Shown here: piece by piece, positions 22,139 to 34,529 of the stretch | Layout of the letters: each line of letters starts with the position of its first letter | Numbering within the stretch: the stretch's first letter is position 1 | Source: an uncultured virus (IMG/VR IMGVR_UViG_2576861110_000002) | Lineage: Duplodnaviria > Heunggongvirae > Uroviricota > Caudoviricetes | Strand: one strand, 5' to 3' | Length of the DNA: 64,000 nt | IMG/VR virus record: IMGVR_UViG_2576861110_000002 | Span: 1 to 64,000 of that record | Position numbers and translations under genes: made by a program | Notes under the pieces: model-generated | What the model was told of the DNA's origin: nothing | Seen by the model: only the letters and a program-made list of their open reading frames with translations | The model's database searches: none

Positions 22139-22212
22139 GTCTAGGAACTCATCATAAATTCATAGTTAGTAAGTTGCAAAAATGCTCTATATCAGTATGG
22201 GGCATTTTTGTT

Positions 22213-25568: not shown

Positions 25569-26522
25569 ATGGAGTTATTGATGAAAAATTACACTGTTCT
25601 CGTTAAAGTTACTGAATCTAAATCACTTTTTAGAAAAAATGTGTATGAAGCAACTTTATTTGAACACCCAAAAGTCACAATAACAGGATCAAGCTATGAG
25701 GAAGCCGTAAGTAAGATTCAAGAAAAAATCATGGAGTATTTTGATTTCTTGAGTGATCGCGGTGAAGATATTCCTGAACCGGCTGAAATGACAGCGGTCA
25801 TGTTTAAAAATCGTGACAAAGATGTGTTTTTTCACGTTGTAAGTATTGATACATCTGTTTATAGCGAAAAAACAGAAAAAATTAATGTAACAATGCCGAT
25901 CTCTTTAACAAGAAAAATTGACGATTTTTTAAAAGATAAAGTTCATAATTCAAATCTTTTTTCATCAAGATCTGATTTCATTACTAAAGCATGTAAACAG
26001 TACTTACCATATGCTCAAAATTTAGCTGCAATTTTTAATAATGAGAAAAGTTTTTCTGCTTTGAGGTACAAAGAGAGTAATACAACTGATAATTGTTGTA
26101 ACCTTTTACAGTATCTAAATAATTCTTACGGTGAAGAAGTTATTCTCTTTGCAACGCATCGTACACCAAGCCACGGTTATAGTCATGACGATGGACCCGA
26201 GACAAATTTGCCGCTATTAGGGGCGATAGTAAAACTTAATTTACCTGCTTTACGTGACACATATATTATTTTCGATGGATTATTCTTAACTGCACAAAGA
26301 AAGCCTAGATATAATGAGGTAAAAGAAGTTCTCGATACTGCTGTATTAACAAATAAAACAAGTTTTATTCGACATGCTGTCCCATTTACATCTCAATTAG
26401 ACCCTGCCGAGGCTATAAGTCTGTTAGGAGAGTTTCCGCGTAATAAATTAACAGAAGATTCGAGACCGGAATTTTTCAATTTATTGAGTAATATTTCAGA
26501 AGCGCAATATCAAAATTATTAA
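25569..26522 (+). CDS. HicB-family antitoxin domain + RHH fused to an unknown ~170-aa C-terminal domain
   Basis: TITGSSYEEAVSKIQE...DRGEDIPEP (HicB) and EKINVTMPISLTRKID...SRSDFITKA (RHH). Confidence 0.75.
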   Translation: MELLMKNYTVLVKVTESKSLFRKNVYEATLFEHPKVTITGSSYEEAVSKIQEKIMEYFDFLSDRGEDIPEPAEMTAVMFKNRDKDVFFHVVSIDTSVYSEKTEKINVTMPISLTRKIDDFLKDKVHNSNLFSSRSDFITKACKQYLPYAQNLAAIFNNEKSFSALRYKESNTTDNCCNLLQYLNNSYGEEVILFATHRTPSHGYSHDDGPETNLPLLGAIVKLNLPALRDTYIIFDGLFLTAQRKPRYNEVKEVLDTAVLTNKTSFIRHAVPFTSQLDPAEAISLLGEFPRNKLTEDSRPEFFNLLSNISEAQYQNY

Positions 26523-27825: not shown

Positions 27826-27912
27826 TAAAGGTTATGAAAATTAATGGAACTTACTTAATTCTCAGAATAAATTTACTTAGAAGATAACCTCATTGATATG
27901 AGGTTATTTTTC

Positions 27913-28854
27913 ATGGGCAGTCTTAATCTTGCAGCTATAACAGCTACTTCTCCATACATTAAAAAGATCCAATCGGCATTAGAAAAAGCAACAGGCCAAA
28001 CGATTGTTACACCAGAATTTCGCAAAATTAAGCGCGTTGCTGGTGTTAGCGTTTTACCAGTTGCATTTTTCTTTTCTGGTGGCGCTACGCTTACACTTTA
28101 TATTCGTGCATTAGCGGATGTAGTGAAGGCCGAACTGAATGATAAAGTAATTGTTCTATCTGGCGATTTTAGTGATGACTATAAGCCAACATTTGAAAAC
28201 GCCGTAAGTTGTGTTGCTAAACTTATCCGTGAAGCACAATCTAAAATCCAAGAACAAAATAAGCGTGAAAAAGTTAGCTTACCGCCGCGCCGTACTTCTG
28301 TAGATCAGAAAATTAAAGAAGTCGAAGAACAAGAGCAAAAGCTTGATGAGGATTTAGCTAAGCAAATAGCTCACCGTGACCAGCTGAAAGAACAAATTGA
28401 ACATGCTAAGCAACAACTTGGTATAAGTTCGGAGGCTGGTCAATCCGAACTGGGAAAGCCTGAATTTGATAGTGCGAGTCCAATCAAATCAGTTACAGCA
28501 AATATCACACGTGGTAAAGCTGCAATGAACAAAGCCATTATGGAAAAAACCACAGTGCATAGAGCTATGTATCGTAATGATCTAGGCTGGGTGGATTTTG
28601 AGTATGGCAGTGATAAACAGGGCATTAAGCATATTATCAAGCGCCGTATGGAAAGTGATGGCATGACATATGATGAAGTTGTGCATATGCTTGTGGATAC
28701 TATTGTGCAAACAATCGCTCAAGGTAGTACACAACGGCGTACAGAACGTGGATTATCTACAAGAATAAATATTGTATTTAATTCGCATGAAGCGTCATTG
28801 ATTAAGCGAGAAGGTAGTAATGCATGGCTGCTTACAGCTTTTGAAGTGCATTAA
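27913..28854 (+). CDS. DarA-N/Hdf-like head-associated protein fused to a PBECR (barnase/ColE5/RelE-fold) nuclease-like domain
   Basis: N-terminal KIKRVAGVSVLPV.FFFSGG...DVVKAELNDK (DarA_N-like), coiled coil, C-terminal LGWVDFEYG..KQGIKHII...WLLTAFE (PBECR1-like). Confidence 0.65.
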   Translation: MGSLNLAAITATSPYIKKIQSALEKATGQTIVTPEFRKIKRVAGVSVLPVAFFFSGGATLTLYIRALADVVKAELNDKVIVLSGDFSDDYKPTFENAVSCVAKLIREAQSKIQEQNKREKVSLPPRRTSVDQKIKEVEEQEQKLDEDLAKQIAHRDQLKEQIEHAKQQLGISSEAGQSELGKPEFDSASPIKSVTANITRGKAAMNKAIMEKTTVHRAMYRNDLGWVDFEYGSDKQGIKHIIKRRMESDGMTYDEVVHMLVDTIVQTIAQGSTQRRTERGLSTRINIVFNSHEASLIKREGSNAWLLTAFEVH

Positions 28855-29748: not shown

Positions 29749-31174
29749 TTTTGAAGCCCAGCTCCAAGCAGCGATAGATGATTATGAGATTCAGGAACGC
29801 TATAAAGCTCAAGATCCACTTGTCGTTCACCAGCTGCGTTCTATGGCTAGTTTTTTGACTGCATTTGGTCCAGAAATCGATATTGCTTCAATTGAACCAT
29901 TTACCAAAACACGTGACCGCTCAATTATTGCGGATGCTACAAATAAAGGCATTTTGCCTATAGGTACACCGTGTCAGCACTTAATAGAAATTATCAACCG
30001 GTCAACAAATGCTGTGAGCTTAAGTCAAGGGCGAATGATTGAGGACCATAGCGGCGGTAGAGTATGGCGGTTGCTTCAATCAATTACTGTTAAAGCTGGT
30101 GAGACGGCGGAAGTAATAGCAGAACAAAGTGAATACCGTGAAATTAAATATGTTGTACCAGTTACTGAAGGGTTCCATAAATATCGAATAGACCTTTTAG
30201 AGGACCTTTCACTTGCAAATATTTCGGTTAAGCAGGGCAATAATAACTATGTAATTAAGCCGCGCTGGATGAATGTTGAACCAGGTGAATATGCTGTAAC
30301 TGTTACTACAGATAATCTAAGAAGATTGTTTATTGAGTTTGGCGATTCTGAGAGAGCTGGTCGTACTCTGCAAGCCAATGAAACTGTAATAATTGGAATT
30401 CTTGAGACATACGGGGAAGTTGATGTTAATCGTTTAAAAGATGCGGCCTTACTTGATGTACTTACTAATGATGAACAGCGGGTATCAGTGCGTTTTAAAG
30501 CTGGTGGACTGATTAGAGAGGGCGTAGATCCGTTAGCTGTATCAGAATTACGTTTATTATCAAGCTATCCATCACTTTACGATGAAGATGCGGTATTTCT
30601 CGGCAACTTTGACTATGCAGTCCGTAAAAAATTTATGAAACGGGCACAGTTTATTTCTGTCTGGAATGAAACGTTGCAAGAGCAACACTTTGCCATTACA
30701 TACCGCGACATAAATCATTTAAATCTTGTGGTGGTTGCGAAGAACCCAGCTGAACAAGCAACGTTAGAACAAGATATCTGTCGGTATATTGGTTATTGCG
30801 ATAACTTGTATGAAGGTAAAGTGAATGTACATGAAGTAGTTGAAAAGCCAATTGAAGTAAAAATTAAAGGCTCTTTGGCTTCTGTACATAACACTGATAT
30901 GGTTAAGACACAGATCAAAGAATTACTTGTAGAACGATACGGGCGTGAATCATTGAGCTCAAGTCGATGGCTGGTTAATGGCTTTAATACGCAAGAAATG
31001 GGGAAGCTGATTAATGACAATATTGTGGCTTTCCAAGACCGGATGAGTGACTTTACCATTATGCTTTCAAATGAGTTGAATAAGCCTAATGAGTGGGTGT
31101 ATGTGACAAAAGACAGCATTACTGTTGAGTTGGAACGCACCGCTGATATTTCGGGGGCTACATGGACCCTATAA
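29729..31174 (+). CDS. Baseplate J-like wedge protein (P1 BplA-like)
   Basis: Size, IEFGD motif, GVDPLAVSELR and synteny. Confidence 0.65.
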   Translation: MTLTQADFEAQLQAAIDDYEIQERYKAQDPLVVHQLRSMASFLTAFGPEIDIASIEPFTKTRDRSIIADATNKGILPIGTPCQHLIEIINRSTNAVSLSQGRMIEDHSGGRVWRLLQSITVKAGETAEVIAEQSEYREIKYVVPVTEGFHKYRIDLLEDLSLANISVKQGNNNYVIKPRWMNVEPGEYAVTVTTDNLRRLFIEFGDSERAGRTLQANETVIIGILETYGEVDVNRLKDAALLDVLTNDEQRVSVRFKAGGLIREGVDPLAVSELRLLSSYPSLYDEDAVFLGNFDYAVRKKFMKRAQFISVWNETLQEQHFAITYRDINHLNLVVVAKNPAEQATLEQDICRYIGYCDNLYEGKVNVHEVVEKPIEVKIKGSLASVHNTDMVKTQIKELLVERYGRESLSSSRWLVNGFNTQEMGKLINDNIVAFQDRMSDFTIMLSNELNKPNEWVYVTKDSITVELERTADISGATWTL

Positions 31175-31776
31175 GCTTTACTCGGCCTATCGATGAACAC
31201 TATGTAAGTACGGGCTTGCAAACCGCACTTGCTAAAGCATTTAAACAAGTATTTGCACAAAACTTTGAGCAGTCCATTCAAGATTTATTGGATTACGGTT
31301 GTCCTCATATCGGTAGTAAAACAGTTGTAGAACGGTTCTCTAAACAAAACGGACTTGTTGTATTACGCCGAAATAACACCTCTGACACGTTAATGCGAAT
31401 TATCTATGCCAATTGGAGCAGCATGGGTAATAAAAGAGGATTAGCGTTTTTAGAGTTTGTTTTACGAATGTTGTGGGGGAAAGATCATTTTCAGATTATC
31501 CGGCTATGGCATAGCTTGGAAAAGCTAAAAGAATATCCAGCCTATTTGTCTGATTTTGAAAAGCCAAATTACTTCTTAACAAGTCGGATTAGAATTGTTT
31601 TAGATAAAACTGTTGATGCAAATGAAGTGGTAGAGCTGTCACCGATATTACGGCGTTTAGTACCAGCCAATATTGTCGTTAAAGTTCACTCAATGGCATT
31701 TGATAGAGATTTAGGCACAACAAGCTTTACAGCGGCAATAGCAGCTAAGCCTTATGCAGTCTATAACTTCCTTTAA
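31162..31776 (+). CDS. Baseplate/tail I-like protein
   Basis: KRGLAFLEFVL...LRRLVPANI; follows the J-like gene. Confidence 0.6.
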   Translation: MDPISFTRPIDEHYVSTGLQTALAKAFKQVFAQNFEQSIQDLLDYGCPHIGSKTVVERFSKQNGLVVLRRNNTSDTLMRIIYANWSSMGNKRGLAFLEFVLRMLWGKDHFQIIRLWHSLEKLKEYPAYLSDFEKPNYFLTSRIRIVLDKTVDANEVVELSPILRRLVPANIVVKVHSMAFDRDLGTTSFTAAIAAKPYAVYNFL

Positions 31777-31854
31777 TTCAATTGGAACTGTTGAGTTAGC
31801 GCTCAAATACAAAATGATTTCATAGTCCTGTTCATTAGTTCAGGACTTTTTTAT

Positions 31855-32313
31855 ATGCAACAAGCTCAAGACAATGTTTTAGTAGGAATCGCAGAACCTA
31901 TCAATGATCAGGGAGAAAACTTATTAATTGATCATTTCTTAGGATATGCAAGCCATGAATTAGAACCACAAGAAATTGATAAAGTTATTAAAGGGGAAGT
32001 GGTTGAAGGCATCACGGAATATGCTCAGGGCCATTACTATAAGATTTCAGCAAATCCTGAAAACCAAAATGCAAAAGAATTTGAAATCAGTATTCATTTT
32101 CAGGATGGCCCAATTCCAGAACATGGTGTGAATGGGGTTACCAGTGAAGCATTGTTAAAAGTACTTATTCACCGTACTAAAACCTTGGATGAAAAATTTC
32201 CGAGTGAGTTCAACAAACAAGCCATTATTTATATGGAAAGTGCGCTAGAAGAATTTAATAAGCGTACAGCTGAACGCCGTGCTCGTGGTGTTGAAGGCAC
32301 ACTTGTTAAGTAA
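31855..32313 (+). CDS. tad1: Tad1-family anti-defence sponge protein with acidic N-terminal extension
   Basis: HYYKI...IHFQDGP..EHGVNGVTSEALLKVLIHR...FPSEFN.QAI..MESAL..FNKRTAERRARGVEGT matches the Tad1 pattern I.FQ.G...GV....LL....R...F.S.EN..A....EAL....R...R..R.V.GT. Confidence 0.78.
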   Translation: MQQAQDNVLVGIAEPINDQGENLLIDHFLGYASHELEPQEIDKVIKGEVVEGITEYAQGHYYKISANPENQNAKEFEISIHFQDGPIPEHGVNGVTSEALLKVLIHRTKTLDEKFPSEFNKQAIIYMESALEEFNKRTAERRARGVEGTLVK

Positions 32314-32324
32314 TGGGGTGATGT

Positions 32325-32552
32325 ATGCGTTTAAGTATTTTTTGTCGAAAGCGTGGTTGCTCTCAATTAATTGACTTATCTCAAATGGATTGTTTGCAAG
32401 TCTCCCAAAGTGAACATAGAGGCGGCATGGTTAGTGAAAGCTTTTATGACGTTTTTATCTCACTTAAAAGTGGATACATTTTTGATGCAACCATTGAAGA
32501 TAAACAGCATGACAAGCTATTGGAATTGATTGAGTTTGATCAAAAGATTTGA
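32325..32552 (+). CDS. Hypothetical protein
   Basis: 75-aa ORF with an SD, directly after the Tad1-like gene. Confidence 0.6.
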   Translation: MRLSIFCRKRGCSQLIDLSQMDCLQVSQSEHRGGMVSESFYDVFISLKSGYIFDATIEDKQHDKLLELIEFDQKI

Positions 32553-32624
32553 TTTGGAACTGATTAAATTTCAACTGTAGAACAACTGAAACAATAGCCT
32601 CAATCACAGCATTGGGGCTTTTTT

Positions 32625-33530
32625 ATGGCTAGCAAAAATAGAAAGACAAAAGTTCTATCTTACAACTTACATGATCGATGCCGTAAATTTACCGGTGTTG
32701 ATCGAAGTAATGTCGATGTAGATGCAATGGTCAACTTGATCAACAGTGACCATGTACAAGAAATGGTTGCTACTAATTCATTACAAGGTTTTTATGGTCA
32801 TCAAATTCGACAGCGCTATGGTATGGTGCCGCCTGAAACGGTGATCATTAAAGGTAAAGTTGTATATCTTTCACGGGCGTTTAAAACAATTGAATTACGT
32901 GCTTCAAAGGATGGAACAGTTGAACACCGAGAAGAGTTTTATGATAACGAGCCTGGTGAGATCGCATTACAAGATTATAAAGCCCAAGCGGGTGGTTTTA
33001 GCACATCAGTCAATTACAAGAATGTCGGTGGCCGTTTAATTCCAACGGGTTTTTTTGGTTTTGATTTCGTTGCACAACCAAATTATGCAAGTAATGTAGG
33101 GGATGGTCAGTTATTTGATGGATTATTTGTTCCTGAAGAGCCAGAAGGTGTTGTTTCTTGCTTTGATAGCGCAACAGATATTTCACAGTTATCACAACCT
33201 GAAATTATTATTGCCCAATTACTTGAAGATCAAATCTTACAGACCTACGACAATATCAATAGCCAACTTCAACTTTTAAATGAGTTAGGAAATGCTCAAG
33301 GCTTAGTAGGTGAACTCTCAGAAAAAGTTGATAAACAGAAACGCCTGCAACAACTTAGAGAAGAACGCAAAAAAGAACTCTATACGGGTTTGGTAAATCC
33401 GGTGAAGAGCTTTGATTCAGTTCAACAACATGCTGAACAAATTCTGCAATCCATGGATCAGCCAAGTGTAAAAGAAAAAGCTAAAAAGCCGAAAAAGTCT
33501 TTTGGCAGTATCTTTAGTGTATGGGGGTAA
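32625..33530 (+). CDS. Prohead protease/head processing protein (P1 Pro-like)
   Basis: GFYGHQIR, GTVEHREEF..NEPG, AGGFS, FGFDFVAQPNY. Confidence 0.7.
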   Translation: MASKNRKTKVLSYNLHDRCRKFTGVDRSNVDVDAMVNLINSDHVQEMVATNSLQGFYGHQIRQRYGMVPPETVIIKGKVVYLSRAFKTIELRASKDGTVEHREEFYDNEPGEIALQDYKAQAGGFSTSVNYKNVGGRLIPTGFFGFDFVAQPNYASNVGDGQLFDGLFVPEEPEGVVSCFDSATDISQLSQPEIIIAQLLEDQILQTYDNINSQLQLLNELGNAQGLVGELSEKVDKQKRLQQLREERKKELYTGLVNPVKSFDSVQQHAEQILQSMDQPSVKEKAKKPKKSFGSIFSVWG

Positions 33531-33532
33531 TA

Positions 33533-34348
33533 ATGAATTACCCCAACGATTCGCTTAAATGCATCCAAAACGCTTGGTATAAGCAGCTTGTCAATTTTCG
33601 TGCTTGGTATATGCCTGAGACACAATTAACGGCTGACTGGAAGTTGAGAGCCATTGGTAACGCTATAAAAGCATGTCCGTCACGGATGATGGACGATTCA
33701 GAAGCAATGCTTTCTGAATATAGAAAAAGCCAGAAGCATGAGGAAGAATCCAAAGTGCTTTTACCTGTAATGCTTACTGCAACAGCGTTAACTGACCAAC
33801 CCCCTGATGTAAATCAATTATTACCAGTGCCTGATTTTATTGAAACGGTCATTGATGAGAAACGGGTGAAGGTTCGTCTGGTGCCGACAACTGTACGTGC
33901 TCAAATCGCTTTCTTTGCCACCAATCCCAATGATCTGCGTTCAGTCATTGGGCAATTTTGCGCGTACATGTCTAGCAATGATAACCGTCGTTTTAATGTG
34001 CCATTTCAGCAATGGAATGATCATGTATTTAATTCAACATTCACTGTTTTTGAAAATGAACTTTTTCCATCACCAGTCCCAAGCGAAGCAATCAATCTTT
34101 CTATCTCAACTGTAGATATTCAGCTCGTGGGTTATACACCTAACGTCATCGGTTTCGGTGGTCCATTCGACCAAAACACAGGTAATGGCTATGAACCTGA
34201 CGGCTCAGCAACGGAACAGCCCGCAATCAACGACAAAGTTGTAGTGCAAGCTGATCAGTACACATCACTCGATCACCAGCGTGTGAAGGGTGATAGAGAA
34301 ACAGGTGAAATTACAGTTGAGAGTATAGATGACAGACTTAATCGATAA
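33533..34348 (+). CDS. Virion structural protein (tail completion-like)
   Basis: ORF within the structural operon; function inferred from context only. Confidence 0.45.
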   Translation: MNYPNDSLKCIQNAWYKQLVNFRAWYMPETQLTADWKLRAIGNAIKACPSRMMDDSEAMLSEYRKSQKHEEESKVLLPVMLTATALTDQPPDVNQLLPVPDFIETVIDEKRVKVRLVPTTVRAQIAFFATNPNDLRSVIGQFCAYMSSNDNRRFNVPFQQWNDHVFNSTFTVFENELFPSPVPSEAINLSISTVDIQLVGYTPNVIGFGGPFDQNTGNGYEPDGSATEQPAINDKVVVQADQYTSLDHQRVKGDRETGEITVESIDDRLNR

Positions 34349-34529
34349 GGCACAAGAAAGTGCTGATTATTTATTGCAGCAAGAAATTGCAAATCGATGC
34401 CGTTTTGACGGCGAATCTGAAAAAGAATGTATTGAATGTGGTGAAGAGATACCAGAGCGTCGCCGTGCACTTGGTGGGGTTAAATTCTGCATTGAATGTC
34501 AAACCAAGATAGAACGTAAACGGCGCTAA
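34329..34529 (+). CDS. TraR/DksA C4 zinc-finger protein
   Basis: MTDLIDKAQ, CIECGEEIPERRR...CIECQ. Confidence 0.9.
   Translation: MTDLIDKAQESADYLLQQEIANRCRFDGESEKECIECGEEIPERRRALGGVKFCIECQTKIERKRR

Follow-up and report, generated by a model that had tools for sequence, protein, structure and literature searches.

The gene described here, a member of the Tad1 family, lies in a 64,000-nt window of viral DNA that forms part of a 78,862-base IMG/VR provirus record. The window matched the Acinetobacter baumannii phage vB_AbaM_ABMM1 with 97.6% identity over 92% of a 6-kb test stretch, and the ABMM1 counterpart of the 152-aa protein is 98.7% identical and labelled 'hypothetical protein' in GenBank. 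Exactly the same protein is recorded by NCBI from 233 contigs, the longest of 4.17 Mb, and is named just 'hypothetical protein' there too. Its residues 1–58 are acidic, with 12 D/E against 2 K/R. As the earlier note on this DNA had said, tad1 is embedded among structural genes and stands in the midst of tail and baseplate genes (Table 1). Upstream of it lie the genes of a baseplate protein (phrog_1369, E = 7.6e-187) and of a phrog_4620 protein; downstream, the 75-aa ORF is followed by a gene whose product has a tail-fibre-like N terminus (phrog_4727/1801) and, further on, by tail sheath, tube, spike, portal and terminase genes. In window coordinates, the linear ABMM1 record in GenBank stops at about 34329–34518 with an annotated 190-bp repeat region, whereas the provirus continues into the terminase gene; the physical phage genome probably ends about 2 kb downstream of tad1.

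Table 1. Features of the tad1 locus, in window coordinates
Feature	Position	Strand	Description
TTGGAACT element	31782..31789	+	GGAAC at 31784–31788; 71 nt upstream of the tad1 start
Leader hairpin	31824..31852	+	arms AGTCCTG/CAGGACT and a six-T run; ends 2 nt before the ATG
tad1-family gene	31855..32313	+	ATG-started ORF; 152 aa, pI 4.95, 17.1 kDa
75-aa ORF	32325..32552	+	phrog_5518, unknown function; 11 nt 3′ of tad1
Terminator-like hairpin and T-run	32596..32619	+	after the second TTGGAACT (32554–32561); abuts the next gene start at 32625

Related loci were collected from IMG/VR using the single tad1 protein as query. This yielded 73 loci with a tad1 protein 81–100% identical; the 75-aa gene and a 301-aa gene stand downstream in 72 of the 73, and a 204-aa gene stands upstream in 67. 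A search that started from the 301-aa gene found tad1 in all 69 loci with enough upstream DNA, the remaining one of the 70 being too short. The upstream genes differ in two loci (L066 and L067), and a 111-aa ORF is inserted in three (L065–L067), all of which kept the roughly 80-nt leader together with tad1. This ORF (2582–2917 in each of the three loci) has a signal-peptide-like N terminus and lies directly upstream of the tad1 leader, at a position that seems to take up accessory genes. On the other side of tad1, the 75-aa phrog_5518 ORF had no match in Pfam or NCBIfam and might be a second small anti-defence gene. A few kilobases upstream, in the same late-strand block, are genes for a protein whose N-terminal part is Hdf-like and antirestriction-related (27898–28854; phrog_1620, E = 1.1e-29) and for a HicB-like protein (25569–26522; phrog_497), which points to additional genes of counter-defence or accessory function scattered among the tail genes.

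The tad1 start codon is preceded by a copy of the word TTGGAACT, which contains GGAAC. GGAAC occurs 57 times on the plus strand of the window, and 11 of these copies fall in intergenic DNA, which totals 3,452 nt (5.4% of the window); the exact 8-mer TTGGAACT occurs 7 times against 2.9 expected. Ten GGAAC elements lie 51–78 nt upstream of the starts of plus-strand structural genes, one gene's start in this range being taken from its PHROG match. The tad1 element had been described as deviant in its spacing, but at 71 nt it falls in the middle of the range, and the argument from spacing for a timing unlike that of other late genes is unsupported. Because tad1 is fixed in the tail-gene cluster and shares its upstream word with the structural genes, we infer that its late co-expression with them is likely. 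The form tTGGAACt was found on the plus strand at 22144, 27846, 31784, 32556, 37071, 41077, 43961, 47950, 49033 and 62118, in front of genes for tail lysin-like, tail fibre, sheath, tube, portal and other proteins, and it may be a late-promoter or activator site of this phage group. The copies at 31784, 32556 and 47950 sit in the loop of a 9–10-bp hairpin, and by eye a short ATAG word follows tTGGAACt at +13, +18, +33/34 or +46. No match to a sigma-70 promoter was found on the plus strand of 31100–32700.

The leader is predicted to fold with −17.3 kcal/mol and is unchanged in 54 of 71 related loci; the sole Shine–Dalgarno-like word of tad1 (AGGA, 31842–31845) lies inside the 3′ arm of its hairpin. 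Both terminator-like hairpins of the locus are placed between a TTGGAACT word and a start codon, end 2–5 nt before the ATG and carry Shine–Dalgarno-like purines in the 3′ arm. Because transcripts of the downstream genes must read through these hairpins or start inside them, the arrangement suggests attenuation or translational control at tad1 and at the next gene. Contigs from three RNA-library runs (X2, X4 and X10) cover a whole 3.9-kb stretch within contigs of 9–21 kb and are uninformative on timing, strand and ends, and the raw-read run X23 had no reads on this stretch.

The 152-aa protein belongs to the Tad1 family. When all PDB chains were searched with phmmer, 8 distinct sequences were returned at E ≤ 10, seven of which are Tad1 chains or phiKZ gp184 and the last of which is noise (E = 0.55); the E values were 9.9e-11 for CmTad1, 2.7e-6 for gp184 and about 2.7e-4 for CbTad1. 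At E ≤ 1e-3, exhaustive searching with HMMER gave 2,294 representative proteins, 231 of them at E ≤ 1e-10. A family profile made from 131 relatives taken from this search recovered the same seven PDB sequences and no others, with E values of 2.6e-25 for CmTad1 and 1.8e-20 for CbTad1, both over nearly the full length, and 3.6e-17 for gp184. PHROGs placed the protein in phrog_2428 (E = 6.3e-52), a group of unknown function. The Pfam model PF24729.2 (Acb2_Tad1_hairpin) did not match the protein at E ≤ 10, nor did it match anything when run across the entire record, and NCBIfam gave no match for the protein. We did not count the Pfam miss against Tad1 membership because PF24729.2 recovers just 8 of the 131 family relatives; a precomputed PF24729.3 label stands on 10 of 24 close homologs, one of them 91% identical.

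The predicted structure agrees with this assignment. An AlphaFold2 model made with a 131-sequence alignment reached a pLDDT of 86.6 and a pTM of 0.75 (an earlier model with 17 sequences had scored 68.5), and the Tad1 fold, an N-terminal antiparallel β-sheet followed by two long helices, is present in it, with strands at residues 8–15, 23–32, 53–55, 61–66 and 77–82 and helices at 97–114 and 118–143. In a Foldseek search of the PDB the matches listed up to rank 17 were all Tad1 chains (best E = 2.1e-7), and the next match listed had an E of 0.24. VIA-align superposed the model on CbTad1 (7uaw_A) with a Z score of 11.0 and an r.m.s.d. of 2.5 Å over 118 of 125 residues; the best eight matches were all Tad1 (Z = 9.5–11.0), and the ninth (Z = 7.2) covered the helical hairpin only. 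In a viral structure library, the matches were phage proteins labelled 'Acb2/Tad1 hairpin domain-containing'. Sequence, family profile and predicted fold thus bear out the Tad1-like identity proposed in the earlier note, which had said that it would fall if neither an HMM nor a structural match to Tad1 was found; matches of both kinds were obtained.

The structural alignment pairs residues 10..152 of the model with 0..124 of the CbTad1 chain, so that no appended tail is formed by the first 55 residues, which are modelled as two strands and a short helix of the N-terminal sheet (pLDDT 76–85). The conserved Phe of the FQxG motif is at position 82 here, compared with a median of 52 among 144 relatives outside the Acinetobacter clade, which were picked by likeness to the query so that frequencies among them are biased; its position is below 75 in 103 of these, 75–109 in 12 and at least 110 in 29. 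The proposed acidic extension of about 55 residues is acidic and does comprise some 30 extra residues, but for the most part it is the N-terminal β-sheet of Tad1, as the alignment with CbTad1 makes clear.

We then mapped the published contact residues onto the protein through phmmer (HMMER) alignments of the query with CbTad1 and CmTad1, verifying the numbering offset letter by letter for all 13 named CbTad1 and all 11 named CmTad1 residues. Eleven contacts of CbTad1 to 1′′-2′ gcADPR are named in the Leavitt preprint (10.1101/2022.05.03.490397). Eight of them are identical here: H29, G55, R78, F87, N92, R109, R113 and G120 of CbTad1 correspond to H60, G85, R107, F115, N120, R137, R141 and G148. 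One change is conservative (F82 to L111, a position that is Leu in 116 of the 144 relatives, a sample biased towards the query) and two residues differ (R57 to I87, which is Ile in CmTad1 too, and N122 to L150). Among the same biased sample of 144, N120 is kept in 143, R137 in 142 and R141 in 143. The CbTad1 mutants R109A/R113A and F82A/N92A lose binding of gcADPR and of cGAMP (Li et al., 10.1101/2023.11.15.567273). Of these mutationally validated residues N92, R109 and R113 are all retained here; F82, which forms one face of the adenine sandwich in CbTad1, is Leu, and this counts against the reading as a gcADPR sponge. It is plausible from these residue states that the gcADPR pocket is kept in the Acinetobacter clade.

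A different picture emerged for the second site of Tad1, which binds cA3 and cAAG at the three-fold interface of the hexamer through R88/T95 in CmTad1 and R90/T97 in CbTad1 (Li et al., 10.1101/2023.11.15.567273). Both phosphate-binding residues of CmTad1 are replaced here, R88 by E118 with reversal of charge and T95 by I125, and C87/A91/M92 have become S117/K121/Q122. Only one of the eight hexamer-interface residues of CmTad1 (R88, T95, K96, Q98, E99, M102, W103 and K106) is kept, as K136, and M102/W103 are E132/E133. Across the 21 protein variants of the clade (71 loci), the E118/I125-type states show little or no variation. In the query-biased set of 144 relatives from elsewhere, the position of the Arg is occupied by E in 38, by D in 35, by R in 14 and by K in 12, and the interface Trp is present in 20; non-Arg states at the trinucleotide site are thus the commoner ones among the nearest relatives. 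The sole unusual state is at position 119, which is Phe here and Glu in 107 of these 144 selected relatives.

The motifs quoted in the earlier note were all found, FPSEFN as residues 115–120, ESALEE as 128–133 and the C-terminal R..R..R.V.GT as R137/R141/R144, V146 and G148–T149. The variant residues to which it drew attention are real, but they sit in the trinucleotide site and the hexamer interface and not, as it supposed, in the pocket for gcADPR and cyclic dinucleotides, where eight of 11 contacts are identical. The FPSEFN/ESALEE changes are accordingly read here as likely to abolish the binding of cA3/cAAG, not to shift the specificity of the pocket, and anti-CBASS activity is less likely than first supposed because the variant residues mark the trinucleotide and hexamer face. 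The predicted loss draws on two residues plus the interface, and another interface or site could exist.

Taken together, we consider it highly probable, by analogy with characterized Tad1 proteins, that the product of tad1 is an anti-defence sponge of the Tad1 family, belonging to an A. baumannii ABMM1-type myovirus or prophage, most likely directed against Thoeris, without binding of cA3 or cAAG and possibly a dimer. Starting from the observed family membership and residue states and from the predicted fold, we infer the ligand and the oligomeric state as follows. By homology to CbTad1 and CmTad1, two protomers would interlock to form two closed pockets, with the N-terminal β-sheets in front and a four-helix bundle behind. 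The adenine of a TIR-made signal (3′cADPR/1′′-3′ gcADPR, also 2′cADPR) would be stacked between L111 and R137 and its edge read by N120; R137 and R141 would hold the diphosphate and H60, G85 and R107 the ribose hydroxyls, with the C-terminal tail (G148) as a closing lid. Sequestration of the signal would leave the Thoeris effector ThsA inactive. The second, trinucleotide site is predicted to be absent, since its Arg/Thr pair is E118/I125 and the interface Met-Trp is Glu-Glu, and the protein may be a dimer instead of a hexamer.

Published activities bear on this proposal. In the founding study, 10 of 10 tested homologs inhibited Thoeris, one of them from an A. baumannii prophage, though perhaps not of this clade (Leavitt, 10.1101/2022.05.03.490397). 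According to Table S2 of Hadary et al. (PMC12393519), three of the tested Tad1 homologs (numbers 49, 50 and 65) were validated against type I Thoeris; by eye, these have D, L and V where the Arg would be. The A. baumannii protein AbTir makes 2′cADPR and is described as distinct from Thoeris (10.1101/2022.05.07.491051). A TIR-domain search of the 78,862-base provirus record found none, and because the record is without host DNA this is uninformative on host defences.

A sponge acting on both Thoeris and CBASS, taking up cyclic di- or trinucleotides besides gcADPR and owing an altered ligand range to the variant residues, is in our view unlikely. CbTad1 accepts 2′,3′- and 3′,2′-cGAMP in its gcADPR pocket through F82, N92, R109 and R113 (10.1101/2023.11.15.567273), three of which are identical here, and this pocket might, as in CbTad1, still accept cyclic dinucleotides; Tad1 homologs that inhibit CBASS as well as Thoeris are, moreover, reported to be widespread in the Hadary preprint (PMC12393519). 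Yet the trinucleotide residues are replaced with reversal of charge (R to E118, T to I125), and the guanine-holding Q8, L13 and L119 of CbTad1, which are unconserved even in CmTad1 (Li et al., 10.1101/2023.11.15.567273), fall in regions without sequence alignment here. By eye, the Hadary tables do not list the three tested Arg-less homologs as validated against either CBASS tested. We regard it as very improbable that the Tad1 fold serves some other purpose here, for instance in an accessory protein of the tail or baseplate, and not as an immune-signal sponge. The gene lies inside the tail-gene cluster, all 69 related loci with enough room contain it, an uncommon degree of fixation for an anti-defence accessory, and the database label is just 'hypothetical protein', but the ligand-holding residues are the most conserved of the family and are retained here, all ten homologs of the founding study inhibited Thoeris, and the gene with its leader also stands beside different upstream genes (L066 and L067).

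Compatible with a Thoeris-directed sponge, though improbable in our judgement, is a virion-carried Tad1 that would be made late with the tail genes, packaged and injected with the DNA before the host signal arises. Its relative phiKZ gp184 (E = 2.7e-6; profile, 3.6e-17) is a minor capsid protein of the inner capsid surface (PMC11297242), and a further preprint calls gp184 Tad1 and describes its C terminus as freed by the head protease and then injected (10.1101/2025.11.23.690004). Several Bacillus phage homologs are labelled 'structural protein', long N-terminal additions occur in 29 of the 144 query-biased relatives, the gene has a baseplate gene on one side and a tail-fibre-like gene on the other and is preceded by the same TTGGAACT word, and the protein has about 30 extra acidic N-terminal residues. 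These residues are, however, modelled within the compact fold (pLDDT 76–85), unlike the anchoring part of gp184 with its more than 100 residues, while GenBank 'structural' labels may be guesses and gene position is weak evidence. We give little credence to a still broader proposal, that the Acinetobacter clade is a distinct Tad1 type, late and linked to the tail module, whose acidic face (E118, E128, E132 and E133), taken on in exchange for the trinucleotide and hexamer face, and acidic N-terminal strand–helix elaboration might serve for riding in the virion, which phiKZ gp184 achieves by other means, or for a mode of assembly or binding new to the family. The Thoeris-directed sponge remains the reading that we prefer.

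Among characterized proteins, CbTad1 and CmTad1 (from Clostridium botulinum and a Clostridioides mangenotii prophage; PDB 7UAV/7UAW and 8KBB–8KBH) are homologous over nearly the full length and have the same predicted fold, with about 22–26% identity in structural alignments. The protein here is some 20–27 residues longer, all at the N terminus, and differs from both in the replaced R/T and Met-Trp (E118, I125, E132 and E133) and in Leu for the stacking Phe. The founding member, Tad1 of SBSphiJ7 (142 aa, Bacillus host), belongs to the same family and to the same Hadary homolog table; by eye it carries the canonical CREN...T...MW motifs that the protein here lacks. In phiKZ gp184 (PDB 8Y6V, chain I), the C-terminal domain is homologous, query residues 65–149 aligning with 140–226 of the chain (E = 2.7e-6); gp184 has 230 aa and an N-terminal part that wedges into the capsid and is cleaved by the head protease (PMC11297242; 10.1101/2025.11.23.690004), a domain that the protein here is without. 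Both proteins are encoded among virion genes. 'Putative structural protein' is the annotation given to many Tad1 homologs in Bacillus myoviruses (Bcp1, Bc431v3, JBP901 and others), and these labels together with gp184 hint that virion association of Tad1 may be common.

Acb2 proteins are not known to have a β-sheet. Their helical hairpin is joined with that of Tad1 in Pfam PF24729, and the trinucleotide-binding mode of Tad1 is said to recall Acb2 (Li et al., 10.1101/2023.11.15.567273). Those in the Hadary tables (PMC12393519) measure 62–108 aa, in contrast to the 152 aa and the five predicted strands before the helices found here. Here both the sheet and the pocket residues of Tad1 are present, the protein is without a PF24729.2 hairpin match, and no Acb2 chains were among the PDB sequence matches obtained with phmmer or the profile.

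The Tad1 family, its mechanism and the membership of this very sequence are already in print. In Supplementary Table S1 of Hadary et al. 2025 (PMC12393519), a list of Tad1 homologs detected by HHpred comparison with 7UAW, rows 1114–1115 are, by eye, letter for letter this protein, within a block of 39 rows that represents the clade. None of these 39 rows bears the label 'known homolog', and none of the 20 tested Tad1 proteins in the 84-protein Hadary panel carries the motifs of the clade. The one slightly new point is the prediction, plausible from the residue states, that the clade keeps the gcADPR pocket but loses the cyclic-trinucleotide and hexamer face.

Bacteria widely defend themselves with Thoeris and CBASS, and sponges of the Tad1 family are a main means by which phages counter these systems. 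The predicted binding of a Thoeris signal without trinucleotide binding would offer a cheap test of whether the two sites of Tad1 are separable, while opening no new question. That a Tad1 gene is present throughout the ABMM1-type prophages (69 of 69 loci with room for it) is useful to know for phages considered as therapy candidates against A. baumannii.
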